Shown: piece after piece, positions 3,534 to 53,882 of the stretch | Layout of the letters: each line of letters opens with the position of its first letter | How positions within the stretch are numbered: position 1 is the stretch's first letter | NCBI GenBank assembly: GCA_030390025.1 | Contig: CM059432.1 | Span: 21,764,001 to 21,828,000, forward strand | Direction: 5' to 3' | DNA from: Squalus acanthias | Lineage: Eukaryota | DNA: 64,000 nt | Made by a program: the position numbers and the translations under genes | Notes under the pieces: model-generated | The model's database searches: none | What the model saw: the letters and a program-made list of their open reading frames with translations, nothing else | What the model was told of the DNA's origin: nothing

Positions 3534-5862
3534 ATAGAATCATAGAATCATAGAATGGTTACAGCACGGTAGGAGGCCATTCGGCCTGTCGAGCCCGTGC
3601 CAGCTCTCTGCAAGAGCACTTCAGCTAGTCCCACTCCCCCGCCTTTTCCCTGTAGCCCTGCAAATTTTTTACCTTCAGTTACTTATCTAATTCCCTTTTG
3701 AAAGCCATGATTGAATCTGCCTCCACCACCCTTTCAGGCAGTGCATTCCAGATCCTAACCACTCGCTGCGTAAAATAGTTTTTCCTCATGTTGCCTTTGG
3801 TTCTTCTGCCAATCACCTTAAATTTGTGTCCTTTGGTTCTCAACCCTTCCGCCATTGGGAACAGTTTCTCTCTATCTACTCTGTCTAGACCCCTCATGAT
3901 TTTGAACACCTCTATCAAATCTCCTCTCAATCTTCTCTGCTCTAAGGCGAACAACCCCAGCCTCTCCAGTGTTTTATAACGATTCATCATAACTTCCTTG
4001 CTTTTGTACTCTATGCCTCTATTTATAAAGCTCAGGATCCCGTATGCTTTTTTAAATGTTTTCTCAACCTGTCCTGCCACCTTCAATGATTTGTACACAT
4101 ATACCCCCAGGTCTCTCTGTTCCTGCACCCCTTTTAGAATTGTATCCTTTAGTTTATATTGCCTCTCCTCGTTCTTCCTACCAAAATGTATCACTTCACA
4201 CTTTTCTGCGTTAAACTTTATCTGCTACGTGTCTGCCCATTCCACCAACCTGTCTATGTCCTCTTGAAATCTATCCCTGTCCTCCTCACTGTTCACTATA
4301 CTTACAAGTTTTGTGTAATCTGCAAATTTTGAAATTGTGCCTTGTACACCTAACTCCAAATCATTAGTATATATCAAGAAAAGCAGTGGTCCTAGTACCG
4401 ACCCCTGGGGAACACCACTGTATACCTTCCTCATGTCCGAAAAACTACCGTTCACCACTACTCTCTGTTTCCTGTCATTTAGCCAACTTTGTATCCATGC
4501 TGCCACTGTCCCTTTTATTCCATGGGCTTCAACTTTGCTGGGAAGCCTATTATGTGGCACTTTATCACACACCTTTTGGAAGTCCATGTACACCCCATCA
4601 ACTGCATTGCCCTCATCAACCCTCTCTGTTACCTCATCAAAAAATTCGATCAAGTTCGTTAAACACGATTTGCCTTTAACAAATCTGAGCTGGCTTCCCT
4701 TAATTAATCCACACTTGTCCAAGTGACTGTTAATTTTGTCCCGGATTATCCTTTCTAAAAGCTTCACCACTACCGAGGTTAAACTGACTGGCCTGTAATT
4801 GCTGGGTTTATCCTTACACTCTTTTTTGAACAAGGGTGTAACATCTGCAATTCTCCAGTCCTCTGGCACCACCTCCGTATCTAAGGAGCATTGGAAGATT
4901 ATGGCCAGTACCTCCGCAATTTCCACCTTTACTTCCCTCAGCATCCTAGGATGCATCCCATCCGGTCCTGATGACTTATCTACTTTAAGTCCAGCCAGCC
5001 TTTCTAGTACCTCCTCTTTATCAATTTTTATCCCATCCAATATCTCAACTACCTCCTCTTTCACTATGACTTTGGCAGCATCTTCTTCCTTGGTAAAGAC
5101 AGATGCAAAGTATTCATTTAGTATCTCAGCCATGCCCTCTGCCTCCATGTGTAAGTCTCCTATTTGGTCCCTAATCGGCCCCTCCTCTTACTACCTATTT
5201 ACTAGTTATATGCCTATAGAATACTTTTGGATTCCTTTTTACGTTAGCTGCCAATCTATTCTCATATTTCCTCTTCACCCCTTTTATTTCCTTTTTTACT
5301 TCCCTTCTGAACTTTCTGTATTCAGCCTGGTTCTCACTTGTATTCTCAACCTGACATCTGTCATACTCCCATTTTTTCTGCTTTATCTTACTCACTATCT
5401 CTTTCGTCATCCAGGGAGCTCTGGCTTTGGTTGCCCTACCTTTCTCCTGAGTGGGAATGTACCCCGACTGTATCAGAACCATCTCCTCTTTAAAGGCAGA
5501 CCATTGTTCAATTACATTTTTGGCTGCCAATCTTTGATTCCAATTTACCTGGACCAGGTCCATTCTCAACCCACTGAAATTGGCTCTAGATTGCTCTTTG
5601 TCCTTTTCCATAGTTGACCCAAAAACCTTATGATACTATGATTACTGTTCCCTAAATGTTGCGCTACTGAAACTTGATCCACCTGTCCCACCTCATTCTC
5701 CAGAACCAGATCCTGCAATGCCTCCTTCGTCGTTGGGCCGGAACGTACTGATCAATAAAGTTCTCTTGAATACACTTCAGAAATTCTTCCCCCTCTCTGC
5801 CCTTTACACTATTACTATCCCAGTCTATATTAGGATAATTGAAGTCCCCCATTATCACGACT
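3534..5862 (-). mobile_element. 5'-truncated CR1 LINE with frameshifted ORF2 (end of endonuclease plus RT)
   Basis: ORF pieces 5664-5858 (GDFNYPNIDW), 5195-5611, 4225-5148 (NYRPVSLTS, PQGSVLGP, FADY) and 3679-4194; (CATAGAAT)n tail at 3534-3555. Confidence 0.95.
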
Positions 5863-6416
5863 ATGTTTCTATGATTCTATGATTATGGGGCAATCTGACA
5901 GAAGGGGGTAAAAATTCAGTTGGTTGCGCCTCCCGTTAGCGCCTTAAATGGGCGCTAATGGGGCGTTAAGGCGCTAACGCCCGGGCGCAGCGCTGTTTGC
6001 GCCGCTCGAGAACTTAACTTGAGATTGTGCGGCGGCGCTAAAACTTACCGCTGCGACCACCTGCGCGCGCAGATTGTGACGTCATTCCATGGTGCAACGC
6101 CCTTGGGGCGCCCCGGAGCGGAAATTGAGTGGCGCCCCCTGCCTTACCGCCTGGCGCTTCCAACGACCGGAAGACTGGAACGTTATCAATCGGTGTGGGG
6201 CTGGGGGGGGCGCTATTTAAAGGGGGCCTCTTCCTGTCTTTTTCTGTGGTCGACATTTATGCACCACTCGTTCTGAGAGAGAGAGAGAGATTCGGAGAGA
6301 GAGAGAGAGAGACTTCTACATTGACTCAACGCTTTGTGAGGTAGTTTTGCCTAGTTCATCCTAACTTTGCTGCTACTTTCGTTGCTGTACCTCATTACTT
6401 TTCTGGCAAAGAGAAT

Positions 6417-7577
6417 ATGGGGGCGTCAATGATTGGGGGCGTCGTCCTGCTCCAGCTCAATCGGAGGAGAGTGAGACGCAGACAGAGAGTGGCAATGATG
6501 GCCAGACGGAGGAGGGCCATCAGGCGCATGTACAGGAGAGCTTACCCTCCCAGGGTATATCGTGAACAGCTCTCCTACATCCACATGTCCGAGGAGCTGT
6601 GTTTGCGAAGGCTGCGATTCAGCAAGGAGGTGGTCACTGAGCTCTGCCACCTGCTGCAGCCAGATCTGCAGCCTCAGCTGAGGTCCAGGACGTCTCTGTC
6701 GGTGGCAGTGAAGGTCACAGTGGCTTTGAACTTCTACGCCACTGGCTCATTCCAAGCTGCTGTTGGGGACCTCGCCAATATCTCCCAGTTTGCGGTGCAT
6801 CGCTGCATCCGGCAGGTCACCAATGCCCTCTTCACAAGGAGACGAGACTTCATCTCCTTCCCTATGACCCCAGACAAGCAGCATGACCGTGCTATGGGCT
6901 TTGCGAGGGTAGCGGGCTTCCCCATGGTGCAGGGCGCCATTGACTGCACGCATGTGGCTTTGCGTGCTCCGCGAGAGAATGCAGAGGAGTTCCGGAACAG
7001 AAAGGGGTTCCATTCCTTGAATGTGCAGTTGGTCTGTGACCACAGACAGGTGATTCTCGCTGTCAATGCCCACTATCCGGGCAGCTGCCACGATGCTTTC
7101 ATCCTGCGCCAGAGTACTGTGGCAGAAATTTTCGAGGCACCGCATCAGCCAGTTGGTTGGCTTCTGGGGGACAAGGGGTACGCATTGAGCACCTGGCTGA
7201 TGACACCGCTCCGTGCGCCAAACACCCCTGCTGAGCTGCGGTACCAGGAAAGCCAACAAGCAACGAGGAACATTATTGAGCGCACAATCGGCGTGCTCAA
7301 ACAACGATTCCGCTGTCTGGACCATTCCGGAGGAGCCCTGCAGTACTCGCCTGAGCAAGTTTCCAAATTCGTAGTGGTGTGCTGCATGTTGCACAACATG
7401 GCAATCCTCAGGACGCAGCCAATGCCACCAGGCCTTGCAGCACCACAAGAGGAGGAGGAGGAAGAGGAGGAACAGGCCGAGGACGATGATCAGCAGCAGC
7501 ACCAAGGCAGGAGGGCGGCCCACAATGGTCAAACTGCAAGGGCCGTCCGTCAACGACTAATAGCAAGCCGCTTCTAG
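6417..7577 (+). CDS. Harbinger DDE transposase (HARBI1-family nuclease), 386 aa
   Basis: Uninterrupted ORF with LRFSKE, GAIDCTH, NRKGFHSLNVQLVCD, PGSCHDAFIL, LLGDKGY, IERTIGVLKQRF, CCMLHN and an acidic tail. All three catalytic residues are present. Confidence 0.95.
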   Translation: MGASMIGGVVLLQLNRRRVRRRQRVAMMARRRRAIRRMYRRAYPPRVYREQLSYIHMSEELCLRRLRFSKEVVTELCHLLQPDLQPQLRSRTSLSVAVKVTVALNFYATGSFQAAVGDLANISQFAVHRCIRQVTNALFTRRRDFISFPMTPDKQHDRAMGFARVAGFPMVQGAIDCTHVALRAPRENAEEFRNRKGFHSLNVQLVCDHRQVILAVNAHYPGSCHDAFILRQSTVAEIFEAPHQPVGWLLGDKGYALSTWLMTPLRAPNTPAELRYQESQQATRNIIERTIGVLKQRFRCLDHSGGALQYSPEQVSKFVVVCCMLHNMAILRTQPMPPGLAAPQEEEEEEEEQAEDDDQQQHQGRRAAHNGQTARAVRQRLIASRF

Positions 7578-7871
7578 GGCCCCTGCCAGTGCTACAAACA
7601 CGAATCAACCCAGCACGCAACCCCTAAGCCGGCCAAGGCACCAATAATTCCAACCACCAGCCATGTATATTTTGAATACAGAAACTTATTTATTGTACAA
7701 ACTCTGTGTGTGTCAATTCCTCATGACAAACTCATAGAAATAAACACAAAAAAACAGTCAATAACATAACTGGTTCTCACAACCTGGAGATAATGTCCAA
7801 AACACTAAACAAAAGTTGGGCCATGAACCTCGGCCTTTAATAAAAAAATGACCAGCATTTTGGCACACCTC

Positions 7872-9892
7872 CTACTTTTTGCCCTTCGAGGGTGATCTCC
7901 TTCCCTTGCGCACTTCCCCCCTTCTAACCCTACTGCTCCTCCGTAATGGGACCTCAGTGGCTGCAGCAAGGCTGGTGGAAGGCTGCTGCTTGTCAGACCC
8001 TGACACTGCAGATGCCCCTGAAGGACGGCCTCGACCACTTCTGGGCCTGGAGGGCCCGGCTGCAGACTGCACCAACTCTGCATGGGCGGCAGCAGTCTGT
8101 CCTACAGGCGGTGGCAAGTGCAGTGGAGAAGTGACAGTGTTGGCAGCAGGAATGCTGTCATCGTGAGAGAGGACAGCAACTCCCTGCTCGACCGACACAC
8201 TGGCACTCCCACGGGGCAGCACTTCAGCATCCGGAGCAATTTGCCGGAGAACAGATTGCTGGCCTGCTGCGGCGCGGTGACAGCCCCGGGGACATGTGCA
8301 CGAACCATCGAGGATGGCAGCAGTCAGTGCTCGCGTGGCCTCAATCTGAGTCTGCATGAGAGCAGTCTCAGATGGGTTCCTGGCAGCCAGTGACTGAATT
8401 GCAGCAGTAAGCTTTAGTGTGGCATCCGCCTGTGCTACAGCGAAGTGCTCCACACTCCTTGCCAGTGCCTCAATGCATTCGGGCACCCTTCCCACTGCAC
8501 CCATGAGCTCAGTGTGCATGCCCACCGCCTGGCTGTTCATTTCTGCAATCAGCCGCTCCTCCTCTGCGTCCATTGCATTAGGAGTGTCTGGCATACTCTC
8601 CCTCTGGGGAGAAGGCTCCCGTTCTTCCCTCCCCCCCCCCCCATGGCGTTGCTGCAGCCCGCTGGGTCCTGGAACTTCACCATCATCAGCCCCTTCCCCC
8701 CTGCTCCCCCGTTCTTCCCTCCCCCCCCAATGACGTTGCTGCAGCCCGCTGGGTCCTGGAACTTCACCATCATCAGCCCCTTCCCCCCTGCTCCCCTCCG
8801 GGGAAGGCGTGTTCCCAGTGTGGCCATGGGCTTCCTCGGGAGAGGGTGGCACTGATGCTCCGGCTTCCTCTTCCTCCTCAGCTGCAGCATCACTCCCAGT
8901 GGCAGCTTCAGGGACCATCTCCTCAGCTGGTGAATCACCATCTGAAAGCAGGGAGGTACAAGAGTGGCTTTAGCGTGAGGACAGGGTGGCAGTAAGGGAG
9001 GAATAAGTGCAGCGAGTTAGCAAGTTGGATTGAAAGTGTCAAAGGCTGGTATTGTGAGGGACAAGTGGAAGGACAGAGGACAAAAAGGTGATGACCTTAC
9101 CATTGCTGTCCACAACGGGGTCGGCGTCTCCAGTGGCGACGGGACCGATCACCCGGCTTGCCACAATCCTGTGGACGCGCTCCTCCAGATCGCTGAGGGG
9201 TTGCAGCTGAAGCCGCCCTCCACCCGTCCGTTGCTGCTGTCTCCGATTATGAGCCAGCTTAGCCTGCAAGAAAAAGGACAGCATCTGAGTCAATATACAG
9301 CCATGGTCTTGCCTGATGTGCCTCCCATAGGTGAATAGCCCTTACAATATGCAGCCATGGTCTTGCCTGATGTGCCTCCCATAGGTGAATAGCCCTTACA
9401 ATATGCAGCCATGGTCTTGCCTGATGTGCCTCCCATAGGTGAATAGCCCTTACTGTATGCAGCCATGGTCTTGCCTGATGTGCCTCCCATAGGTGAATAG
9501 CCCTTACTGTATGCAAAGTGTGGAATGTGTGTGTGTGTTTGATGAAAGGGCCATAGGTGTTGCATGAGTGTTGTGCATTGGGGTTTTAAGACCCTCTGGC
9601 CATAGAGTGAGGTTGAGATGGAGGGATGGAGAGGTATTGAGAAAAAGCCACTCACCCTGACGACCCGAGTGAGGTCGTTGAACTTTTGGCGGCACTGGAC
9701 ATGGGTCCTGGGCACCATGCTCCTGGAGGAGACGCTCTGAGCCACCTCCCTCCACACTCTTCTGAACTCGCGTGGCAAAGGCCTCCTGCCACTCTCCGGG
9801 AACAGCATGCATCGTCTGCGCTCCACTGCGTCAACCAGAGCATCCAAGGCCCGCTCGGTGAAGCGATGAGCGCGTTCTCTCACCCTCTCCAT
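7872..9892 (-). CDS. Harbinger Myb/SANT-like DNA-binding protein; exons 9892-9656, 9263-9101 and 8941-7872; 489 aa
   Basis: Exon 1 RFTERALDALVDAV..W.EVA..V....R...QCRQKFNDL; exon 2 AKLAHNRRQQQRTGGG. Donors GTGAGT and GTAAGG; acceptors TTCTTGCAG and CTTTCAG. 237+163+1070 = 1470 nt, in frame with ORF 7872-8918. Confidence 0.85.
8620..8800. repeat. 87-bp tandem duplication in exon 3 of the Myb/SANT gene
   Basis: GCTGCAGCCC recurs at 8651 and 8738; the peptide GSRGEGADDGEVPGPSGLQQRH..GREER occurs twice and the frame is preserved. Confidence 0.9.
9295..9513. repeat. 54-bp minisatellite, 4 copies, in intron 1 of the Myb/SANT gene
   Basis: Unit GCAGCCATGGTCTTGCCTGATGTGCCTCCCATAGGTGAATAGCCCTTAC(AA/TG)TAT, head-to-tail with no spacers. 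Confidence 0.97.
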
Positions 9893-10296
9893 GCTTGGCA
9901 GCAAAATGGATTACAGGTCTCTCCAGGCTGAGATTCAAGGCTGCAATGAGCAGGGTGTGGCTGGGGAGCAAGTGGCCCCCCCCGCTTTAAGAAGTGTCCG
10001 GCGCCAGTGTGTCTGTGTTCCCTCGCTAACTGGCAGCAGCTGCGCTGCGCTCGTGCGCTGAGGTAGCGCCTCACTCCTAGGCCTTTGCGCCTTAAGAGAG
10101 GTGTGCAGCGCCTAATTTAGCGCTCCACTCACCTCCCGGGGCGGTAAAAGTGAAGTTTCCAGTCAGTGCCGATAATTAGCGCCAGGCGCTAATATTTGCG
10201 TCCAGATGATATTTGCGCCCCAAATGGGGCGCGACCTAATTTCTACCCCAAGGTGTTTAAAGTTATAAAAAAGTGGCACAGGGTAGATGAAAGCAA

Positions 10297-10827
10297 AGGC
10301 AAAATATTGCGGATGCTGGAAATCTCCTTTATATTGGGGAGACCAAACGCAGATTGGATGATCACTTAGTGGAACGCCTCCGTTCAGTCCGCCAGCGTGA
10401 CCCTGAGCTTCCGGTCGCTTGCTATTTTAATTCTCCATCCCACTCTCAATTTGACTTCTCTGTCCTCGGCCTTCCTCACTGTTCTAATGAAGTTCAACAG
10501 AAGCTCGAGGAACAGCACCTCATCTTTCGACTAAGCACTTTACAGCTTTACGGACTCAACATGGAGTTCAACAATTTCAGATCATAACTACTACCCCCAT
10601 TTTTTTGGACAGCAGGTGCTGGTAATGAATCAGCTGTTCACTTAATCTCTCTTGCCTTCCACCCTATCACAGTCCTTCCCTTTTGTTCTTTCCTCCCCTC
10701 CCCGCTTTCACTGCACCTGTACTTGCTTAAAACCTGTTACATATGTAACATTTTCCAGTCCTGACGATAGGTCACTGGCCTGAAATGTTAACTCTGTTTC
10801 TCTCTCAACAGATGCTGCCTGGCCTGT
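10297..10827 (+). mobile_element. Penelope-like element fragment: GIY-YIG endonuclease C-terminus plus pseudo-LTR, with a short inverted pLTR piece at the left end
   Basis: LYIGETKRRLDDH..PVACYFN..EQHLIFRLSTLQLYGLN at 10328-10587; degenerate hammerhead core at 10761-10789; 13-bp TSD TAGAT(G/A)AAAGCAA at 10284-10296 and 10828-10840. Confidence 0.88.
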
Positions 10828-13462: not shown

Positions 13463-14575
13463 GTGTCAACTGTGGCTCAGTTGGTAGCACTCTCGTCTCT
13501 GAGTCAGAAGGTCATAGGTTCCAAGTCCCACTCCAGAGACTTAGGGGGAGAAATTCATTATAGCCCCGTTTGGGGTGCTAACTTTTAAAAGTTGAAAAAA
13601 TTAGTGCCAGGCGCTAATGTTTTTCAACTTTAAAAAAATTTGGTTTTGCGCTCTAGGAAGGAAGTGGAGCGCTAAATCAAGCACTCCACTTCCTTCCTGG
13701 AGCGCAACAGGCAGCAGGCTTATTATCAAGTAATGACCAGGTAGGTGAGCAGCGCTGTACAATGGGTCGTGCAGCGCTACCGTGTTGGAAGGCTCCTTCC
13801 CTCCCTTAAAGGGAAGGGACACCTGTGCTGCAGGCTCTGCAGGGGAAAAACTTACCTGGTCCCCGACGGCAACTGCGATCTGGCCCGATCAACCCAATGT
13901 ACTGCAGCAGAGTGCTGGGCTGATCGATCGCTGGCGAAGGCAAATGAAAAAATAACAGAAAGAGCATTTGAGAATTTCTTCCACTTAGCTCGGGCAGCTC
14001 GCCTTTAAGCACCGCCCCCAAACCGCCCGGCCTCCTGATCAACGCCTCCTGCAGTGTTTCCGCCCGGCGATGCTGCAGGGGGCGGAACCGAAGTTCGGGT
14101 CCGGGGCGCTGCACATGGCGATGAGGTCACGATCTCTGGGCGAAGGAGATCGGGGCACAATGCCATACCGCCGCCGCCGCAAACCTCCCTCCGAATATAG
14201 CGGGAGTTGATCTTCTCGCCGCGCCCGGTCGGTAAGTGATTAGCGCCCCATTACCACCCCCCGGAGGCGATAACGGGAGGCGCTAAGGTGCCCAATTTCT
14301 AGCCCTCAATGTTAAACCAAGGCCCCGTCTGCTCTCTCAGGTGGATATAAAAGATCCCATGACACTATTTCAAAGAAGAGCAGGGGAGATATCCCCGGTG
14401 TCCTGGTCATTATCTGATATCTGGTTATTATCACATTGCTGTTTGTGTGACCTTGCTGTGCAAATTGGCTGCCACATTACAATAGTGACTACACTTCAAA
14501 AGTACTTCATTGGCTATAAAGTGCTTTGGAATGTGCTGAGGTTGTGAAAGGCACTATTTAAACCTTTCTTTTTTC
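13463..14575 (+). mobile_element. tRNA-derived Deu-domain SINE (SacSINE1-like), split by a MITE
   Basis: A box TGGCTCAGTTGG, B-box-like GGTTCCAAGTCC, Deu-like core taaaagatcccatg..ccccggtgtcctgg. About 80 bp of SINE is missing at the MITE junction. Confidence 0.8.
13544..14305 (-). mobile_element. Harbinger-type MITE
   Basis: GGGGGAGAAATT / AATTTCTAGCCC termini; the left end aligns with the end of the 742-3200 element; multiple TAGCGCC-like motifs; TSD imperfect (TTA/TCA). Confidence 0.8.
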
Positions 14576-19871: not shown

Positions 19872-20678
19872 GGGGGGAAAAATTCGGTTGGTTAGCGCCT
19901 CCCGTTATCACCTCCGGGGGGGGCGCTAACGGGGCGCTAGGAACTTAGCGCCCGAGCATGGCGATTTTAGCGCCGCTTGCGAAATTGACCAGTCGTTTTG
20001 TGGCGACGCTAAACACTACCGCCACGATCTCCTGCGCCCGCAGATCGTGACGTCAGTCAAGCATGCAACGCCCCGGTAGTGCCCCGGACCAGATATTGAC
20101 TCGCGTCCCCTGCCTTAGCGCCTGTCGCTAGGAACGACAGGTAGAGGGGAATGTTTTCAAGTCGGGAAGGGGCTGGGGGAGCGCTATTTAAAGGCGGGCG
20201 CTTCCTGCCTTTTCTTGTCGGCAAAATTTTTGGTTTTAACGCTGTCCTAAGGTGTTTTGGCCCTCAGCACCACTTTTGTGGTTCCTAAGCGCCGAGCTCT
20301 TTCCCTGGGCCTATCCATTAGTGCTTCCAACACAATTGCTTTTGTAGTCTCTCCAGGCTGAGATTCAAGGCTGCAATGTGCAGGGTGTGGCTGGTCAGCA
20401 AGATGGCCCTTCCCCTTTAAGAACTGGACGGCGCCAGTCTGTCTGGCTTCCATGGTAATTGGCATTGCCTGAGCTTTGGTAGCGTTCTGAGGTAGCGCCT
20501 CGCTCCCTGATGTTTGCGCCTTAAGAGAGGTGCGTAGCACCTGATTTAGCGCTCAAATCACCTCCAGGGGCGATAGAGGCGAATTTTGAAGTCGGAGGCG
20601 ATAATTAGCGCCGGGCGCTAAACTTTGTGCCCGGCCGATATTAGCGCTCCAAAATGGGCGCTACCGAATTTTTCCCCC
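19872..20678 (+). mobile_element. Non-autonomous Harbinger deletion derivative
   Basis: GGGGGGAAAAATT / AATTTTTCCCCC termini, CTT/CTT flanks. Both arms align with the ends of 5905-10249, and it retains the Myb start (MDRPRERARR) on the minus strand. Confidence 0.9.
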
Positions 20679-21970: not shown

Positions 21971-23660
21971 ATAGGACTCGAAAGCCAAGTCCCGCGGCGG
22001 GACATCTGCCCACCCAATATCCGTGATGCTGGAATTGCAGCTAATTAGAATATTTCTGGGCAGGACCAAGGCCCATGTTCCATCAGCAACTGGTAGTTTA
22101 GGACAGAAGGCACAGAAATTTCATAAGGGGCTGGGGGGGTAGGGGGGCAGGGGCAGGGACTGAGAAGCCTTATAGGATTGTTGTTGTAAGAAATATTGTC
22201 ATGATATTCATGATTTTTCTGTTGAAAACATGAAGTTGCACTGGATCTGAATAAGATGTTTGTGGAATTTGGACCCTCATGGTCTTTCAATGCTGAATGG
22301 AGTTGTACATGTATATTATGTGGAGTGTGCTGGTTATATGGATGTTGCATAGTCATAATCTGATCACACGTTACTGAAAGTCTCTCTGATGAGTTTGTCT
22401 CCCAGCATGTATCTGTTACCCTGCTGTGTCCTCCTCAAGTCTGAGTTCCTCTGTCTCAGGCGGTTAAGCTTCTGACTCGGTTTCCTGCTCAGAATCTTAA
22501 TTTTCAGGCTTTTAAAAAGGAAAATTTACGGAGGCCTTAGCATGCTAATGCAATTCTTCATACTCGATTGGTAGAATACTGGAGGGAGCTCCCGAGCCTA
22601 TCGAAGCACCTACATTTTCTTTTCAACATGCCAACAGCTGGTTCAATTTCAAGTGTGAATATAACTCTTGTTTTGGCCCTCTGCTTCACTGATGGTTTTT
22701 TTCAATCGTGTTAGCAGCTATTGTAGTATTGGAAACCCCTTGGATCCAAGAAGCCAGCCAGCGCCTTCTCCTTTATTTTGACAGAATGCAAGCACACTGG
22801 CCAGTCGCAGGAAGAATGAATCATGGCAGCTCCTTGGATACTGGGCATTGACCTGTAGACTGCTGTGCCTGTAGTCTTACACTGAATGGCCATTTGGATG
22901 TGAAATCCCTTTAGGCTGACATAATGATGTGGCTTGACAGTCGGGGCTGTTACGCTACATGAGTGAATCTATTGCTCCAAGACCTCATGGAAACCGATGA
23001 AAATGAATGGCCTGCCTTCAATTGTCTTTCTGTCGCATGCAATGAACTGGGCTCCCCTGGCAAACCGCATTAATAACTTGCCGAATGGACAGCAAACTGA
23101 CTAACATGGCTGAATTTCCCTATGAATGAATATTGCAAAATTGCACTTTCCCACCATGCAATTTTTTTTGTCCATTAAAGTTAATAGATGGAAAACGTGG
23201 GCTGGGAGTGTGTAGTTTTGTGATATGTGGTCTTGCCACACCCATGAGCAGCTCCATGAAAATTTTATTACCCACTTCTAGAAAATGTCATCTTAACTCC
23301 GTGTGGATTCAGTTCATCATTATTGTTTTTAACTATTGCACTTTCTGTTTCTTGCTGTGTGTCATTGCTTCTGTCTTTGCTTTACTTGTAAATAAATATT
23401 AGTTTAAACAAATGCATTGGTATTTATCATCTTTCAGAGCAGACATGGGGTATTCCACGTTATTTTCCATTGCACTATTTTGCAGTTAAGAGGTAATTGT
23501 GTCTTGTGAGCATGCTATTCCAGTCACAGCCTCCATAAAGGTTCAGATTTCAGCTCAGAACAGTCTCAGTCTGCTATGGAAACTGCCTTTCTGTCATGAG
23601 TACAAGCTGTTGGGACAAAACCCAAAGTGTCACGCTTGTATCGGTCACAGACTATACAGA

Positions 23661-29375: not shown

Positions 29376-32152
29376 GGGTTGATTTTTCGGGGAGTCAGTG
29401 GGCGCGATTGGTGGCGGGTCGGATGGGAAAGCGTTTTTTTTACCCCAGCAGGTCCGACCTCGCTGTGAACCTGCCACCACGTGCCTTTCCCCGATGTCAG
29501 GTCTGTCAGCGCTGAGCAGACCCGGCACGCAGCAGGCGCTTTCACAACGGGGGACCCAATTCAGGTAATTAGTGGCTCGTTCAGAGCCACTAAAAAATGA
29601 ACTTGAGCTCACCTTCTGCATTTGACAGCTCGCCCACAGGGTCCACGCTAGTCGTGGGCCACGTCTGTCAAGCTGAGGCGAGAGTTCAGTGACCATTAAA
29701 TCAGCTGTTGAGTTGCCAGCTTTAAATGTACAGTAACAGCTCCCGCCTTACAAGGATATCTTCTCTCAGCCACAAACTCTTCCTCACTGCATTTCCACAA
29801 CAGATTCACCATGCTGCAAGTCTTTACACAAGTCTCCATCCAGTCTGACCTCATTACCTCTCTCACCATTGACAGATCGCTTCTGTCATCTCTACTTCAC
29901 CTGCCATCTATTCCATCAGCATGGGTGCCCTTTATACCTTGATCCTCAGAATCCCACCATGATCAGCCCCAACACCAGCAGTACCAGGCACACCAGCACC
30001 AACAACAACATCACCACCAAACTTCTCCTCGATCACCTGATGCTGCACAGGACAGAAGGCATCAGCACCTGACCACACTGCTGCCTGGGAGGCCAGGGAT
30101 GGCCGCAGCATGGCCAGATTTACGTCACTTGCTGCTGTAAACCCTGGCTGCCACATGATGTGCCACCCCACACCAACACCATAAAGCATCCCTACAATGC
30201 TCAAGCCATTCCTTTCACACTCATCACCATTGCGGGGGATACTGTTATGTCTCACCATTCACTGAAACTCACTAAGCCACTTCCAAAGGTGCACACAGAT
30301 CTGTCCAAGAACGCAAAGTGTTGAAAATAAAGGTTTCAATGTTTGACACCACATTAACAGAAACTTTACATGAACATTGCATAAAACACCCAAGTGCCTA
30401 CCCTTGTGTGTTGTTATTTGGTATGATAGTTGTGGTGGTTGAAGGTCAACCATCACTGCCCCAAGATATCGCTGCAGGAGTTCTTTAGGGCAGTGTCCTA
30501 GGCCCAACCATCTTCAGCTGCTTCATCAATGACCTTCCCTCCAACATAAGGTCAGAAATGGGGATGTTCGCTGATGACTGCACAGTGTTCAGTGTCATTC
30601 ACAACTCCTCAGATAATGAAGCGGTCCATGCCCGCATGCAACAAGACCTGGACGACGTTCAGGCTTGGGTTGATAAGTGGCAGGTAACATTCGCGCCACA
30701 GAAGTGCCAGGCAATGACTATCTCCAACCTCCAACAAGCGAGAGTCTAACCACCGCCCCTGACATTCAATGGCATTACCATCGCCAAATCCCCCACCATC
30801 AACATCCTGGGGGTCACCATTGACCAGAAACTTAACTGAACCAGCCACATAAATACTGTGGCAACAAGAGCAGGTCAGAGGCTAGGTATTCTGCAGCGAG
30901 TGTCTAACCTCCTGACTCCCAAAGCCTTTCTACCATCTACAAGGCACAAGTAAGGAGTGTGATGGAATACTCTCCAGTTGCCTGGATGAGTGCAGCTCCA
31001 ACAACACTCAAGAAGCTCGACACCATCCAGGACAAAGCAGCCCGCTTGATTGGCAGCCCATCCACCACCTTAAACATTCACTCCCTCCACCACCGGCGTA
31101 CCGTGGCTGCAGTGTGTACCATCTACAAGATGCACTGCAGCAACTCGCCAAGGCTTCTTCAGCAGCACTTCCTAAACCCGCGACCTCTTCCACCTAAAAG
31201 GACAAGGGCAGCAGGTGCATGGGAAGACCACTACCTCAAGTTCCCCTCGAAGTCACACACCATCCTGACTTAGAAGTATATCGCCGATTTTTCATCGTCG
31301 CTGGGTCAAAATCCTGGAACTCCCTCCCTAACAGCACTGTGGGAGTACCTTCACCACACGGACTGCAGCAGTTCAAGAAGGCGGCTTACCACCACCTTCT
31401 CAAAGGCAATTAGGGATGGGCAATAAATGCTGGCCTTGCCAGCGATGCCCACGTTCCATAAGCGAATAAAAAAAAAGTTTGGTATGATTGCACTAGGATG
31501 AGGGTGAGTGTGAGGGGTGGCTAGTGAGATGGGGATGTGATAATGTAGCTAGAGAGGGATGGGTGAGGTGCAAGGTAAGTGAGTAACGATGTGCAGGAGT
31601 AGGGTAGGGAAGGCAGAGTGATGGGGATGTGATGAGAGGCACGGCAGGGTGAGATTAGTGTGGTTTGTACTAACGTTCGTGATCTACTTAGATCATTGAA
31701 ATGTTTGCAGCGCTGCACCCAGGTCCTCCTGACCACATCCCTGCTTTTGCCCTCCTCTGCAATCTGCAAGCAGGCTGTGTTGATCTCCTGGGGAGGTCTC
31801 TTCCGCCCATGGGAAGGATAGAGGACCTCCCTGCGCGCTGTGACTCCCTCTATAAGCATATGGCGGGACTCATGGGAGAGCCTGGGTGCAGCCCTTGTCA
31901 GTGCTTGTCAATGCTGTAGATGTCAAAATAAAGTTGGCCATGGTCACTTTAAGGAAACTGGCTGATGACATGTCATCAAATGATGTCACCAGACCTGCTT
32001 CCTCTAACTGGCCAGGAAATGCGCTGGGCGGGCTTAACAAGCCCAATCTCAGGAAATTCATTTCAGAGGCTGGGATGGAGACAGCAATGGGGTCGGTACC
32101 CGCCACCGAAGTCGCCCGCCACAGACCCGCCGAGGTTCGTAAAATCGCAGCC
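29376..32152 (+). mobile_element. Decayed Harbinger derivative from a different subfamily, with a Myb/SANT exon remnant
   Basis: ATA/ATA flanks; loosely inverted ends GGGTTGATTTT / AAAATCGCAGCC. Minus ORF 31521-31859 (EGVTARREVLYP..QIAEE..RTWVQRCKHFNDL) is homologous to exon 1 at 9892-9656. Confidence 0.75.
30428..31477 (+). mobile_element. Family-B LINE, 5'-truncated, with TSD
   Basis: GMFADDCTVFS..; poly-A tail; TTTGGTATGAT duplicated at 30417-30427 and 31478-31488. Confidence 0.92.
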
Positions 32153-34264: not shown

Positions 34265-35641
34265 GTTAACGTGTTGTGTCATTGTTTTACCACATTGTTG
34301 TAAATTGTGATAAAAAGTAATAAGTAATAAGTTCTAAAATAAACAAAAGGGAAGATAGTAGAGTAATAGTTGAAAATTTTGCTTTAGGCACTACAGATAA
34401 AGAGAAAACAAAAAGATGTAAAGTTATTAAATCAGGAGAGATAAATAAGAAATTTGTGAGTAAAACATAAGAGCTGAAGGACAGGTAAGGGTGGGGGGCC
34501 CAAATGAGCGTTCTTTACACAAACGCACAGCGAATAAGGAACAAATTGAATGAACTGCAGGCCCAAATTCAACTTGGAGGGTATGAAATGGTAGCCATAA
34601 CTGAGACATGGCTGTAAGATGGTCAGGACTAGGAACTAAATATACCAGGTTATAAGGTCGACAATAAGGATAGGGGAAATTGTAGAGGGGGAGGAGTAGA
34701 CTTAGTGATTAAGGATGAAATCACTTCAATGATAAGAGAGGATATAACGAGAGGTAAGCAGGCAGCAGAGACTTTATGGGTAGAATTAAGAAAAAGGAAA
34801 GGATTTAAGACTGTAGTGGGAGTTGTGTATATAGGCCCCCTAGTAGCAGCTGTGAAGTGGTTGAATGTATAAATGCAGAGATTAGACAAGCATGTAGCAG
34901 AGTGGTTTTAATGGGGATTTTGGGGTAAAAATTCAGTTGGTTGCGCCTCCCGTTAGCGCCTTAAGAGGGCGCTAATGGGGCGCAAAGCCGCTAACGCCCG
35001 GGCGCAGCGATGTTTGCGCCGCTCGGGAACTTAACTAGAGATTGTGCGGCGGCGCTAAACTTTACCGCTGCGACCACCTGCGCGCGCAGATTGTGACATC
35101 ATTCCATGGTGCAACGACCTTGTGGCGCCCCGGAGCGGAAATTGAGTGGCGCCCCCTGCCTTACCGCCTGGCGCATCCAACGACCAGAAGACTGGAACGC
35201 TATCAATCGCTGTGGGGCTGGGGGGGGTGCTATTTAAAGGGGGCCTCTTCCTGTCTTTTATTATTGGTGGCATTTTTGAACTACGCATTCTGAGAGAGAG
35301 AGGGAGAGACTTCTGGAGAGATTCAACGTTGTGTGAAGGAGTTTTGGGTACTGAGCAGCACTTTGCAGGTTCATTTTGATTTGCCATTCCTTGTATCGAT
35401 TTAGAAGAGACTGTGGGGGCTGCACTCTGAGCTCTTTGCCTGGTACTCTCCATTGTTCTTTCCAGCACATTTGATGTGCAAGTCTCTCCAGGCCGAGATT
35501 CAAGGCTGCAATGAACAGGATGTGGATGGAAAGCAAGATTAACCATCCCCTTTAAGAACTGGCCCGTGCCATTGTGTGTGTGTCCCATTGCTGACTGACA
35601 TTACATGAGCTTCACCAGCGCTCTGAGTTAGCGCCTCACTC

Positions 35642-38164
35642 ATAGATACATAGATACATAGAAGATAGGAGCAGGAGTAGGCCATCCGGCCCTTCGAGTC
35701 TGCTCCGCCATTTAATGAGATCATGGCTGATCCTCCAATTCAGTATCCCGTCCCCGCCTTCTCTCCGTAACCCTTAACCCCTTTTGCCTGTAGAAATATA
35801 TCTAATTCCTTCTTAAATATATTTAATGAGCTGGCGTACACTGCCCTCTGTGGCAATGAGTTCCACAGGTTCACCACCCTCTGAGTGAAGAAATTCCCCC
35901 TCATTTCTGTCCTAAATGGTTTAGCCCTTATCCTTAAATTTTGTCCTCTAGTTCTGTTCTCACCCGCCAAGGGAAACATTCCTTCTGCATCTAGTCTGTC
36001 TAGACCTGTCAGAATTTTATACACTTCTATGAGGTCCCCTCTCAATCTTCTAAACTCCAGTGTGTACATCCCTAAACTACATAGTCTCTCCTCATAGGTC
36101 AATCCCGCCATTCCTGGTATCAGCCTGGTGAATCGCCGCTGCACCCCCTCCATGGCAAGAACATCTTTCCTCAGATGAGGCGACCAAAACTGTACACAGT
36201 ACTCGAGGTGTGGTCTCACCAGTGCCCTGTACAGCTGCAGCAAGGTATCCCTGTTCCTGTATTCCAACCCTTTTGCTATGAAGGCCAGCATACCGTTTGC
36301 CTTCTTGACCGCCTGTTGCACCTGCATGCACGCCTTCAGTGACTGGTGTACAAGAACACCCAGGTCTCTCTGTACTTCCCCCTCTCCCAATTTATTGCCA
36401 TTTAAATAATAATTTGCCCTCCCGTTCCTGCACCCAAGGTGGATAACTTCACACTTGTCCACATTATAGTGCATCTGCCATTTATCCGCCCAATCACCCA
36501 GTCTGTCCAAATCGCTCTGGAGCTTCCTGGTCTCCTCCTCTGAGCCCACCCCCCCTCCTAGTTTAGTGTCGTCTGCAAATTTGGAAATGTTGCATCCGAC
36601 TCCCTGATCCAGGTCATTAATGTAAATTGTGAACAGCTGGGGACCCAGGACAGATCCCTGTGGTACCCCACTTGTTACTGCCTGCCATTCGGAAAATGAG
36701 CCGTTTATTCCAACTCTTTGTTTTCTATCTGACAGCCAGTTCTCTATCCACGTCAATACTTTCCCCTTTATCCCATGAGCTTCAATTTTCCATGCTAATC
36801 TTTTATGTGGGACCTTATCGAAGGCCTTTTGGAAGTCCAGGTACACCACATCTACTGGCTCTCCCCCATCTATTTTACCAGTTACTCCCTCAAAAAATTC
36901 CAATAGATTAGTCAAGCACGATTTACCCTTTGTAAATCCATGTTGACTCTGTCCTATCCTGTCCCCATTTGCTAAGTGCTCCGCTATTTCATCCTTAATG
37001 ATGGACTCCAGCATTTTGCCCACAACTGATGTAAGGCTTACAGGTCTGTAATTACCTGCTTTTTCCCTACCCCCCTTTTTGAATAGTGGGGTAACGTTAG
37101 CTACCCTCCAATCCATGGGCACTGTTCCCGAGTCTAATGAATTCTGAAAAATCATACTTAGTGCATCCGCTATCTCTAGGGCCACCTCCTTCAGTACCCT
37201 AGGATGCATGTTATCAGGCCCTGGGGATTTGTCCGCCTTCAATCCCTTTAGCTTCCTTAACACCATATCCTTAGAGATATTGATTTGCGTCAGTTCCTCC
37301 TTTGCCAATGTCCCTATTTTTCCCGATATCCCAGGGAGGTTTTTTGTGTCTTCCTTCGTAAAGACTGACCCAAAGTATGCATTTAGTTGGTCTGCCATTT
37401 CCTTATTTCCCGTTATATATTCCCCCGTATCTGACTGCAATGGGCCAACTTTGGTTTTCACCAGTCTTTTCCTCTTGATATACTTATAAAAGCTTTTGGA
37501 GTTAGTTTTTATATTTTCCGCCAGCTTGCTTTCGTAAGCTATTTTGCCCCTCTTGATTAAGCCCTTTGTCCTCCTTTGCTCTATCTTAAACTGTTCCCAA
37601 TCTTCCGCTCTGGCACTTTTTTTGGCTATTTTATACGCCCTATCTTTGGATTTTATGCTGTCTCTAATTTCCCCTGTTATCCACGGTTGAGTCACCTTTT
37701 TAGATTTCCTTTTATGCCAGATTGGTATAAGCAATTTTTGCAACTTTGTCATTCTATCTTTAAATGCTTGCCATTGTTTATCTACCTCCAGTCCTCCCAG
37801 GAACGTTGTCCAATCAGACCTACTCAGTTCCCGTCTAATGGCATCATAATTCCCCTTGTTTAAATTCAGGACCTTAGTCTCTGAGTCAATTTCTTCGCTC
37901 TCCATTTCGAGTGAGAAATCGATCATGTTATGATCGCTCTGACCCAAGGGTCCCCGTACAACAAGATTACTAATTAGTCCCTTCTCATTGCACAGTACCC
38001 AGTCCAATATAGCCTGTTCCCGAGTTGGTTCCTCGACATATTGATCCAGATAACCATCCCTTAAACACTCAAGGAATTCCTCCTCCTCATTATTTTTACT
38101 GATTAGGCTAGTCCAATCTATATGTAAGTTAAAGTCACCTATGATGACAGCTGTGCTCTTATTG
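35642..38164 (-). mobile_element. Young 5'-truncated CR1 LINE inserted in the Harbinger derivative
   Basis: (CATAGATA)n tail, CACTC duplicated at 35637-35641 and 38165-38169, uninterrupted ORF2. Confidence 0.95.
35740..38163 (-). CDS. CR1 ORF2 partial (end of AP endonuclease plus complete RT), open but lacking its start
   Basis: 755-aa ORF with NYRPVSLTS, QHGF, LDFQKAFDKV, PQGSVLGP and FADD. The frame stays open upstream through VIIGDFNLHIDW to the truncation point. Confidence 0.9.
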   Translation of the reverse strand, partial: NKSTAVIIGDFNLHIDWTSLISKNNEEEEFLECLRDGYLDQYVEEPTREQAILDWVLCNEKGLISNLVVRGPLGQSDHNMIDFSLEMESEEIDSETKVLNLNKGNYDAIRRELSRSDWTTFLGGLEVDKQWQAFKDRMTKLQKLLIPIWHKRKSKKVTQPWITGEIRDSIKSKDRAYKIAKKSARAEDWEQFKIEQRRTKGLIKRGKIAYESKLAENIKTNSKSFYKYIKRKRLVKTKVGPLQSDTGEYITGNKEMADQLNAYFGSVFTKEDTKNLPGISGKIGTLAKEELTQINISKDMVLRKLKGLKADKSPGPDNMHPRVLKEVALEIADALSMIFQNSLDSGTVPMDWRVANVTPLFKKGGREKAGNYRPVSLTSVVGKMLESIIKDEIAEHLANGDRIGQSQHGFTKGKSCLTNLLEFFEGVTGKIDGGEPVDVVYLDFQKAFDKVPHKRLAWKIEAHGIKGKVLTWIENWLSDRKQRVGINGSFSEWQAVTSGVPQGSVLGPQLFTIYINDLDQGVGCNISKFADDTKLGGGVGSEEETRKLQSDLDRLGDWADKWQMHYNVDKCEVIHLGCRNGRANYYLNGNKLGEGEVQRDLGVLVHQSLKACMQVQQAVKKANGMLAFIAKGLEYRNRDTLLQLYRALVRPHLEYCVQFWSPHLRKDVLAMEGVQRRFTRLIPGMAGLTYEERLCSLGMYTLEFRRLRGDLIEVYKILTGLDRLDAEGMFPLAGENRTRGQNLRIRAKPFRTEMRGNFFTQRVVNLWNSLPQRAVYASSLNIFKKELDIFLQAKGVKGYGEKAGTGY

Positions 38165-39451
38165 CACTCCTTGGCCTTTGCGCCTTAAGACAGGTGTGCA
38201 GCGCCTGATTTAGCGCTCCACTCACCTCCCGGGGCGGTAAAAGTGAAGTTTCCAGTCAGTGCCGATAATTAGCGCCAGGCGCTAATATTTGCGTCCAGAC
38301 GATATTTGCGCCCCAAATGGGGCGCGACCTAATTTTTCCCCCTTTAACTTTCATATAGATTGGGATAAGCAGACTAGATCATGTCAGAAAGGTAGTCAAT
38401 TTCTTGTGTGTGTTCAGGATAGTTTTCGGCAACAATTGGACACATCGGGAGCGGGGTGGGGGCTGGGGGGTGGGCGGTGGGCTGCGGTAGACCCGCACGC
38501 TGTATTTAAAGTGTCAACACGCCTCCTGGGAGCGGGTTGGCTGCCGCCCCGCCTCTGTTAAAAGCAGAAGTGGGCGGGTTGGAAGTGGGTTGAGGACAGG
38601 ATTCAGATTTTTAACACTTTAACCTCCCACCCGACCCAAACCCGCCCATTTTTTGGGGTTAAAATTCCCCCCAACATGTCCTGGAACTAACATATTAGAC
38701 TTAGTAATGAGCAAAGAGCCACATTTAATTAACAGCCTAACGAGGCGTGAATATTTATCTAATGGCAATCATAATATGTTCGAGTTCAATGTAGTGTTTG
38801 AAAGGGAGAAACACGAAACAGCTACTAAGATTCTAGATTTAGGTAAGGCTGGCTTCAACATGATGAGACAGAATTTCCCCGTCTATTCCCGGTATTGAAT
38901 CAGGGACGGGGACGCACCAAAATGAATGTGTGAATAAGGGGCCGATCACATGTTGTGGACCCTTTTGGAAGTTTGTCTCCGACACCTGCCCTGCTCTGGA
39001 ATCTTTAGTGACCCCAACCGCCACCAACCAAAGGTAGGTTATGAAAAAGTTTTTTTTAAACGTTGCTGAGGAGCCATTTTGAGAAAGGTTGCGAAGATTG
39101 AGAAAAAACCAGGCAGCCCACCAAACCGCCCTAGTCAGGTCATGTACAATTTGCCCAATAATGAACTATACCCAAGCCACACAGTCTTTTGAAGAAGACA
39201 ATCATTCACAGGTCAAACCTTCAAGAAGATATTCAATTTTAGGCATCTTTTCATAAATAGTACTGTTAATATGCAATTTTATTCGCCAGTAAAATTAAAG
39301 GAATAGACAAACCCTCCCCCGCCTCTCATAGACACAAATCTCTCTTGTATCTATAGATAGAAAACAAGAAAAAAGCTTGTCATCTGATAGGTGAGCTTCT
39401 CTCACTTCCAGTTTCCAACTTGTTTCTCTGTTCAGCTGTGATCAGTGATCA

Positions 39452-44180: not shown

Positions 44181-44766
44181 GGGGCAAAATTCGGTTGCTT
44201 TGCACCTCCCGTTTTGGTAGCGCCCCGCAGCGCTGCTCCTCCGCCGATGACGTCATCGACGTGCACAGCGCCCCGCTCGCGCCCCGGCTGCGAGCTTCAG
44301 TAGCGCCCCCTGACTTACCGCCAGACGCTATGTCCGACTGGGTCAGGGGGCATACATGCGGCCGGGGTGGCGATATTTAAAGGGGAGGTGCAGGACGGCC
44401 ATTTTTCTTGCTGGCCACCTGCCAGCACCTGCCCCCTTTGCCGTCCCCGGCCTCCGATGCAGCCCCCCGTGGGGTGCCGGCTGCGCTCCGTCAGCCCGGC
44501 ACTCCTCTTGAGTGCCGGGCTCTTTTGCCGGCACCCCGATCCCTGGTGGCCCACCTGGGCCCCGGGTCGCGCTGCACAAGGCCCCTCCCCTTTAATAAAG
44601 GGAGGAAGGCCTGCAGTACCGTGGTGCGAGGAGCGCTTCCAGTCTCCCTCTTGAGCCACTACCAGTGAATTTCGGGCGCGAGGCGCTAACTTTTTCAGGG
44701 CACTAAAAGTAGCGCCCTGGCGAAGTTAGCGCCCCAAAGGGGGTGCGACCAAATTTCCCCCCCCCC
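44181..44766 (+). mobile_element. Harbinger-type MITE
   Basis: GGGGCAAAATT / AAATTTCCCCC termini; repeated TAGCGCC; TGACGTCA; reverse-oriented relative of 53263-53882. Confidence 0.82.
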
Positions 44767-45793: not shown

Positions 45794-46899
45794 CGATCTC
45801 TAATTTTCTAATTTCCTTTGTTTTTGCCAAGACTTAGTTCACTTGCAACTTCTTCCTCAATTGTGTCGGAAGTTTCTCCAGTGAGAAAGTCTGTATTGCG
45901 TTGGGGTAACTGCAATTCACCTCAGCTTGGGTTGGGGAGTGGAGAATCAGCCAGGGTTCCCGACACCAATAGCTATCCAGAAAACTCTCCAGACTATCCG
46001 TGTATGTGGGCATCAGGTGGAGACAAGATTGCGTTCAGCTGTGACATCCCTTGTGATCAACCAGTCCTGAGATCATCAGAAAAATGTGAGGCGATACTTC
46101 CAGCCACCCATATGATCCTCCAGGCTCCTGACCACATTTTTCGGGGGAGGACTAATTTTGTACGCTGGGCAGGATGGGAGTGGGAATCCTGCTCCTGACT
46201 GCACCTCCACTGCTGGAAGGGAGGGAACATATGGAAATCTGCAGCAGTTCAAAGGCTACTGCAGCTGAAATGGCCAGAAGCACAGCAGATGTGTCAGAAG
46301 GGAAAAAGTTAGGCTACACCTGAAGGCAGGAAAGCAATAGCAGAAGAAGGAGGTCTGCAACGATCAAGGCCTCAAGATTCTCAGACCTGTGATGGAGGTC
46401 CACTTTGGCAGAGTTAAGGGCAAGAAGGCAAAGGTTTTATTGCACCCAGGGAATAATGCCCCAGAGAAAGGATGTGCAGGCAGTCTTGAGGGAGGCAGCA
46501 CTGGCAGTCAGTGACATCTGTAACGCCCTTTATAGTCAGACAGGTGGCATTGATAACACTTGCGCCACTTGTGGGAATCCAACCACTCAGAAGAAGTTGA
46601 TGGTTCTCTCCCTCTCTCTCTCTTTGTCTGCTTCACTGGGACCATGTGGCAATGACTCAGAGGCATGCCAAGAACAGTGCAACAGAAACCTGTCTAATGT
46701 AGTGATAAACTGCTGACTGGATGCCTGCTGTAGCTAATGTCACTAGAGGCTTCCTGAAAGCATCCGGATGCATAGAAGTTAAGTGCTGTTGTCAGTTTCA
46801 CAGACATGGGCTAGACTGTGCCCTTGATAAAAAGTGGCTACTAATCAGGTTTCAACAGCTGGCATTTCTCTGTCGCAGTCGTGGGGGGAAACGCAGCCA

Positions 46900-53262: not shown

Positions 53263-53882
53263 GGGGGAAAAATTGGGTCGTGCCCCTTTGGGGCGCTAAC
53301 TTTGCTAGGGCGCTACTTTTAGCGCCCCGAAAAAGTTAGCACCCCCCCGCCCGAAATTGAATGATAGCGCCCCAAGCAGGAGGCGGGGCACTACTGGAAG
53401 CGCTCCCCCTCCCTCTTGGGGCGCTCCCATTGAATATTGCGGTGCTACGTGCAGCAGCGCCATGCGTGTCGGCACGTAGTGCCGCCGTACTGCAGGCCTC
53501 CCTCCCCTGATTAAAGGGGAGGGGCCTAGCGCAGCGTGCACCGGGGCCCTGCTGGACCACCGGGGAGCGAGGTGCCGGCAAAAGAGCCCGGCACTGAAGA
53601 GGAGTGCCGGGCTGACCGATCGCTGGCGGCCCCCCAAAAAATGGCCACCCGGTGCCTGCCTTTTAATTTGCGCCACCCCGGCTGCAAAAACGCCACCATG
53701 ACCCTGTCGGACATAGCCTCCGCCGGTAGGTCAGGGGGCGCGAGCCAAGTTTGCGGCCGGGGCACGAGCGGGGTGCTGCGCACATCGATGATGTCATCGT
53801 CGGAGGCGCAGCACCATGGGGCGCTACTGGCTCCCGCCTCGGGGTGCTAACGGGAGGCACAAAGCAACCGACTTTTTCCCCC
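53263..53882 (-). mobile_element. Harbinger-type MITE with TAG TSD
   Basis: GGGGGAAAAATT / ACTTTTTCCCCC; TAG at 53260-53262 and 53883-53885; same family as 44181-44766. Confidence 0.88.

Follow-up and report, generated by a model that had tools for sequence, protein, structure and literature searches.

A complete two-gene PIF/Harbinger transposon in Squalus acanthias and the abundant, ladder-like family to which it belongs

Harbinger transposition, as the parts of the literature consulted describe it, needs two proteins, with a helper that binds the element ends and, in vertebrates, a 15-bp target (PMC2836001, PMC9392472). For Harbinger3_DR, reconstructed from zebrafish (Sinzelle et al. 2008), that target is given as AAACAC-CWG-GTCTTT (PMC3016246). 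The excerpts consulted of two surveys place such elements outside the group studied here: Etchegaray et al. 2022 find the elephant shark without Harbinger and call for further cartilaginous fish (PMC9179366), and Han et al. 2015, whose genome list includes Callorhinchus and Leucoraja, give the PHIS superfamily as absent from sharks (PMC4482050). Here we describe a 4,345-bp element, 5905..10249, in a 64,000-nt stretch of Squalus acanthias DNA (assembly GCA_030390025.1, contig CM059432.1, forward-strand positions 21,764,001 to 21,828,000), hereafter the window, to whose positions all coordinates refer. An earlier note on this stretch had proposed a naturally intact Harbinger transposon, possibly of an undescribed family, that may mobilise itself and the derivatives around it.

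The element is a genuine, young and complete two-gene PIF/Harbinger, a new family of a known kind. We think it probable that it was inserted recently, that it belongs to the youngest wave of a family that is large, is likely inherited vertically and evolves fast along its trunk, and that this particular copy is weakened. The window copy is not special, being one of hundreds with both frames open; the interest lies at the level of the family, which is abundant, has long persisted under selection and has a trunk changing faster than the host clock.

The family shares with Harbinger3_DR a DDE transposase accompanied by a Myb-like gene, a target-site duplication (TSD) of 3 bp and a 15-bp palindromic target. 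Across 57 distinct insertion sites the shark consensus is ARACWC-NWN-GWGTYT, with A at −5 in 47/57, T at +5 in 49/57, and C at −2 (42/57) and G at +2 (41/57, 73% each) flanking the duplication. As opposed to Harbinger3_DR, the duplication is A/T-rich and loose, and the family has hundreds of natural copies with both frames open. By features alone, it also resembles the NuwaII and NuwaI groups of PHIS as Han et al. 2015 present them (PMC4482050): short terminal inverted repeats (TIRs) that start with GG, a length of about 4.3–4.7 kb, DDE and Myb/SANT genes, and the C and G beside the 3-bp duplication. It departs from NuwaI in the duplication itself, which is CWG at only 2/57 sites, and matches the C|TNA|G target of NuwaII in the flanking C and G, with a strict TNA at only 10/57. 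Two side observations concern the insertion sites. Seven copies (L009, L017, L020, L084, L097, L071 and L096) are flanked by a short tandem word that agrees with the target consensus, presumably a long interspersed element (LINE) repeat tail, and copies L004 and L023 have identical flanks at different places in the genome.

Harbinger-Snek of sea kraits is already on record as a naturally occurring two-gene Harbinger that reaches very high copy numbers in marine vertebrates and includes intact, single-gene and short variants (PMC8437027). Of its intact copies, 269 have been published from Laticauda colubrina (Galbraith et al. 2021, PMC8437027), and intact natural Harbingers are therefore known from vertebrates already. 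Snek is described as a single, recent invasion by horizontal transfer, with its divergence in a sharp peak and a share of 8–12% of the genome (PMC8437027), whereas the shark family forms a graded ladder of more than 20% divergence, occupies roughly 1% of the genome and has elasmobranch relatives.

Anatomy of the element and size of the family

The features of the element, from left to right, are as follows.

5902..5904: left TSD, AAG; the site agrees with the family target consensus at 10/12 flanking positions
5905..5916, plus strand: left TIR, 12 bp; the 26-mer 5905-5930 has 7,802 exact genome matches
5917..6260: left subterminal region, rich in CpG, in which AGCGCC/GGCGCT words recur; putative Myb binding sites and putative transposase promoter
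6417..7577, plus strand: intronless DDE transposase, 386 aa (PF13359; D176, D252, E288), with P256A, N277Q and H280Q wave-wide and A4S private
7872..8941, minus strand: Myb-like gene exon 3 (C-terminal, low-complexity), with an 87-bp duplication and a poly-C run close to the point at which many copies lose their frame
8942..9100, minus strand: Myb-like gene intron 2, 159 bp, GT..AG, skipped in contigs of three of four sequencing runs that we guess to be RNA
9101..9263, minus strand: Myb-like gene exon 2; ratio of non-synonymous to synonymous rates (dN/dS) on the trunk of the family tree 0.23
9264..9655, minus strand: Myb-like gene intron 1, 392 bp, GT..AG; it contains a tandem repeat of 54 bp, with unit numbers that differ among copies
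9656..9892, minus strand: Myb-like gene exon 1, the Myb/SANT trihelix domain; predicted helices 13-25, 40-57 and 64-78; K69Q is base 9688
10161..10207: right subterminal patch with older-wave alleles, likely a conversion or recombination tract
10238..10249, minus strand: right TIR, 12 bp, pairing with the left TIR
10250..10252: right TSD, AAG, equal to the left

The terminal 12-mers (5905-5916 versus 10238-10249) both start with GG and are identical at 11/12 positions, where the match ends. This pair falls outside the window's 25 longest inverted repeats and is weak evidence taken alone; the same ends recur at differing flanks in 28 parsed genome copies, with an exact 3-bp duplication in 26/28. 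Such a duplication is also found in 62/76 copies of the target-site set and 32/37 of the youngest-wave set. Over the whole window the CpG observed/expected ratio is 0.45, but it rises to 1.18 in 5905-6154 and to 0.92 in 10155-10404. The matched TIRs, perfect TSD and CpG-rich ends of the earlier note are all borne out, as are the unbroken transposase with all its DDE residues and the partner gene with canonical splice sites.

The transposase frame scores PF13359 (DDE_Tnp_4 type) in a profile search at E=5e-38, and its DDE triad, picked by motif, is D176, D252 and E288, unaltered in every wave. Read from the minus strand, the three exons of the Myb gene (9892-9656, 9263-9101 and 8941-7872) join into a frame with zero internal stops, whose 489-aa protein scores PF13873 at E=3.9e-9 in the same type of search. 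Its Myb domain is modelled as a three-helix fold with a predicted local distance difference test (pLDDT) score of 83, and the top fold matches include Zeste and GT-1, at Z of about 8. Solved structures matching either protein by sequence were not found, with coiled-coil noise only, and a single-sequence fold prediction of the transposase was unusable at pLDDT 37. A HMMER search gave 68 Myb homologues, and a word-seeded search for longer ones gave none. A joint that removes exactly intron 2 is present in contigs of three of the four RNA-like runs, from two studies, with short sides of 18-24 letters. No intron-1 joint is among the joints listed in the four runs, whose contigs cannot show absence. 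Together with the separate Myb/SANT gene, the DDE_Tnp_4 triad, the GG TIRs, the 3-bp TSD and the 15-bp palindromic target are the structural marks of PIF/Harbinger, and the element bears each of them. By analogy with Harbinger3_DR and Ping/Pong work, the spliced Myb protein would bind the repeated subterminal words and bring the transposase to the ends; the DDE transposase would then excise the element, as a rule perfectly, and insert it at a 15-bp palindromic site, leaving the 3-bp duplication.

Helper exon 3 carries, at window 8618-8796, an in-frame 87-bp duplication and the poly-C run. Copies L028, L029, L030, L064, L071 and L199 have extra 54-bp intron units or a third 87-bp exon unit, and helper frames of about 515-518 codons. 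Among the youngest copies, the helper frame is broken in 14/37, with the stop nearly always just beyond 8618-8796, and the transposase frame in 2/37; part of the helper-frame breaks near the poly-C homopolymer may be assembly errors.

The family is large. In the 3.7-Gb genome, the left-end 26-mer has 7,802 exact matches and a transposase 26-mer 7,544, or 12,899 with up to two mismatches; reversed control words have 0. The first 40 transposase matches on contig C1, which lie in its first 22 Mb only, include 28 full-length copies with both ends, 77-98% identical to the window copy, and 10 of these 28 have both frames open. Extrapolated from these 22 Mb, the genome would hold about 5,300 full-length copies, roughly 1% of its length. 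A helper-gene probe gave 863 matches in the youngest wave. From 40 youngest-wave copies fetched, 38 of them with both ends, we retained 37 (2 incomplete and 1 short removed), and 21 of these 37 have both frames open. Both frames are likewise open in 15/28 of the best matches to the window copy (28 of 30 loci parsed; L013 and L014 left out).

Selection and rate along the family trunk

The copies form an L1-like ladder that extends from 77% to 99.9% identity, and the transposase tree and the helper-gene tree are both ladders, also when built with 75 copies. Mammalian LINE-1 likewise runs as a single line of successive subfamilies, there through reverse transcriptase copying as opposed to a DNA transposon here, and the resemblance is one of tree shape only (PMC5381506, as far as the sections consulted go). 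In a 56-copy tree, the trunk is free of stop codons, transposase dN/dS is 0.29 on the trunk (core 0.22) versus 0.69 on the tips (core 0.63; p ~3e-5), and dN/dS of Myb exon 1 is 0.26 versus 0.69 (p=0.017). The C-terminal part of the helper is unconstrained, with a dN/dS of 0.95. Both genes are thus under purifying selection along the trunk, which lends indirect support to the idea that both proteins would be required for transposition.

The trunk is also fast. Trunk and side branch were compared from one node to the present, and hence over equal time spans, on 64 of the 75 rows, with near-duplicates, mosaics, partial copies and the window copy excluded. From the node of L126, the trunk has 516 non-CpG changes versus 65 in the side copy, as against 35 and 28 CpG transitions; from the node of L099, the corresponding counts are 321 versus 44 and 27 versus 15. 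The trunk excess is therefore about 7-fold at non-CpG sites and only 1.2-1.8-fold for CpG transitions. At younger nodes the counts are small, and trunk/side ratios range between 3.5 and 37. Neither GC content nor the number of CpGs changes along the trunk, while the tips decay. The excess persists in the introns of the oldest comparison (10-11% versus about 2.4%). Adjacent double substitutions are no more frequent on the trunk than on the tips once density is allowed for. Set against its dormant copies, the line of the family has thus accumulated about seven times the change, likely from error-prone copying; on the simplest reading, the non-CpG excess would come from an additional source of mutation tied to copying and arise when copy number is gained through error-prone repair synthesis of the donor gap.

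Several observations weigh against copying-linked mutation as the source of the long trunk. Between the 93% wave and the youngest wave, 23/148 fourfold sites of the transposase have changed versus 4/380 intron and exon-3 sites; since the transposase half diverges faster than the Myb introns, recombination among sub-lineages inflates or partly explains the trunk. Some copies are mosaic, and parsimony on recombining sequences overcounts the deep trunk. The groups compared hold 3-13 copies, the samples come mostly from one contig, the old copies were picked as best matches, and the position of the root among the most ancient ones is an arbitrary choice.

The strongest competing account of the long trunk is that the family re-entered repeatedly by horizontal transfer from a faster, little-methylated reservoir species, or that its sequences were shuffled among unsampled parallel lineages. 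We regard this as a serious but somewhat doubtful alternative. In its favour, Harbinger transfer among marine animals has been published (PMC8437027), the sequence occurs in six organisms, some copies are mosaic, and one half of the element has evolved at a different rate from the other. On the other hand, no listed protein exceeds 66% identity and the best outside elasmobranchs reaches at most 48%, the ladder has many rungs, and the intron excess described above persists. The asymmetry is polarised, moreover: of 198 differences between the 93% wave and the youngest, the 93% wave shares the state of both older references at 142, with the reverse at 16.

The general view of DNA transposons is that they decay inside their host and persist through horizontal transfer. 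A ladder whose fast trunk is under purifying selection is an exception to that view that lends itself to testing. Put in its fullest form, our proposal is that a single LINE-1-like lineage persisted, while diverging by more than 20%, in the germ line of a shark with a slow clock, with copying itself mutagenic and the CpG clock running at host pace; we advance this only tentatively. If true, the genome would hold a dated record of gap-repair mutagenesis and a DNA transposon that out-evolves its host without horizontal transfer, and hundreds of natural two-gene copies would still be able to jump into a 15-bp target.

Changes in the window copy and possible present-day movement

The window copy differs from the family majority by 11 substitutions versus a mean of 6 for the 28 parsed best matches. 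One of them, K69Q, is private to it: 0/55 aligned copies, 0/37 youngest-wave copies and none of the 28 best matches carry it, and among the 100 listed of the 863 helper-gene probe matches, the window copy, listed first, is the only exact one. The homologues have K at this position of the Myb domain in 57/65, R in 3 and Q in 2, and the position falls in helix 3 of the model (pLDDT 83). Helix 3 is the recognition helix of the Myb/SANT fold. Because K69Q alters a conserved helix-3 lysine of the DNA-binding helper, the copy is likely weakened, and as a source of mobilisation it is likely weak or dead. This reading, in which the effect of K69Q is a predicted one, is tempered by the two homologues that carry Q and by the placement of K69 in helix 3, which comes from the model. 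The claim of a naturally intact vertebrate copy therefore stands for the young two-gene element with both frames open and falters at K69Q; of the disabling changes relative to consensus that the earlier note named as refuting it, this one, unique among 28 and 37 copies, supplies a part. The element itself is likely still movable in trans by proteins of other copies.

Several changes at the right end (10161-10204) are older-wave alleles, and for this reason we read the patch as a likely conversion tract and not as damage. Four clustered changes at 10201-10207 had been taken for private damage; that candidate was dropped, as three of them match older-wave alleles.

Other substitutions belong to the whole youngest wave. 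Position 277 is N and position 280 H in 29/31 homologues each and in all older waves, and the youngest wave has Q at both. The whole wave could then carry a crippled transposase and have been amplified passively by the enzyme of the preceding waves, which kept N277 and H280; we consider this unlikely, though less so than full autonomy. Both residues were lost within the last two trunk steps, one of which has 8 non-synonymous changes and 1 synonymous, and contigs of the RNA-like runs carry alleles of the older G94 wave at 26/28 listed differences, several at full depth. Against this, the last trunk step to the youngest wave has 11 synonymous and 11 non-synonymous changes in the transposase (dN/dS 0.31), the trunk is stop-free, and the transposase frame is open in 35/37 youngest copies. 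Given this last-step ratio, the youngest-wave enzyme with Q277/Q280 may work.

Full autonomy, as the earlier note suggested, with the family jumping today, would imply that K69Q and N277Q/H280Q are tolerated, and it appears improbable to us. Its attraction is that both frames are open, with triad and splice sites intact, that the last step retains its low dN/dS, and that there are signs of recent movement: the best matches differ from the majority by 0.15% on average, some by only 1-2 substitutions, and the closest youngest-wave pair, at two different loci, has 2 differences in 3,927 sites. Near-identical copies of the kind that the note had asked for do exist. The one rate measured in a shark (PMC10587355) is, however, 7e-10 per site per generation, at which 0.15% would amount to about 2 million generations. 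Copies this alike may therefore still be old when counted in years, although they are younger than the rate suggests if many of the differences arise at copying. K69 is also nearly invariant among homologues, and the RNA-like contigs represent mostly the older wave. No empty-site joint is seen among the 15 joints shown, out of 28, in two runs of organism A, and run X1 crosses the left junction at single-copy depth. Among 40 scored matches there is no second copy of the flank, and no repeat spans the empty site in a blast test of flank continuity. One contig of run X1 joins the right end 10249 to the left end 5905 with one base between them, at depth 45 (about 3x single copy), and represents either a head-to-tail genomic pair or a circle.

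With the window copy thus best read as a likely weakened member of its wave, it is a poor choice for experiments; the many other natural copies whose two frames are open, with their 15-bp target, could instead serve in an assay of a vertebrate Harbinger that dispenses with reconstruction.

Relatives of the family and other remains in the window

Sharks and rays supply most of the 120 listed homologues of the transposase, which are 40-66% identical to it; among those of other vertebrates, identity reaches 48% at most. Taken by themselves, the homologues make an elasmobranch host likely. Elasmobranch proteins named 'putative nuclease HARBI1' (best listed 60-66%) belong to the same transposase clade and come from sharks and rays of several orders; none is a member of this family, and the host-gene label is automatic. 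That label is all that speaks for a pair of host genes domesticated in the manner of HARBI1 and NAIF1, for which a single copy without TIRs or TSD is expected, and the census of thousands of dispersed copies with TIRs and TSDs, many with stops and frameshifts, refutes it.

The family looks undescribed, as the earlier note surmised, because no deposited protein among the matches listed is closer than 66%. No description of an elasmobranch Harbinger family was found in the literature searched, with genome-paper supplements and most subscription papers outside its scope, and the word Harbinger is absent from the main text of a 2025 preprint on shark and ray repeats. Descriptions of ladder-like or error-prone DNA-transposon lineages were likewise not found in that literature, most subscription papers again lying outside it. 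One Harbinger family thus makes up about 1% of the genome in a group surveyed as Harbinger-free, which answers the question of Etchegaray et al. 2022. Two organisms (C and D) have older G94-wave alleles at 13/14 listed sites, a one-sided count as only differences from the window are listed; this fits inheritance of the G94 wave with later change in the lineage of the window.

The derivative at 34922-38342 is a member of an abundant 893-bp non-autonomous family, has the TSD TTT and is split by about 2.5 kb of other repeat DNA; 18/20 sampled left-end matches that lack the transposase probe fall in one non-autonomous family of about 893 bp. Further derivatives, at 19873-20678, 44181-44763, 53263-53882 and near 13544-14290, are older and short, have the same end type and are about 75-82% identical to the element ends. 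Contrary to the suggestion that this copy mobilised them, the derivatives were likely moved by earlier waves, since the right end of 34922-38342 is that of an older wave and the others have only this 75-82% identity.

Other Harbinger families have left decayed pieces of transposase and Myb, with 35-40% amino-acid identity, at 22510-23086, 46697-46891 and 31683-31883. In the flanks of the element, 5195-5900 and 10253-10590, no Pfam family was found; from motifs, we take them to be CR1-type LINE fragments and a GIY-YIG-like fragment.

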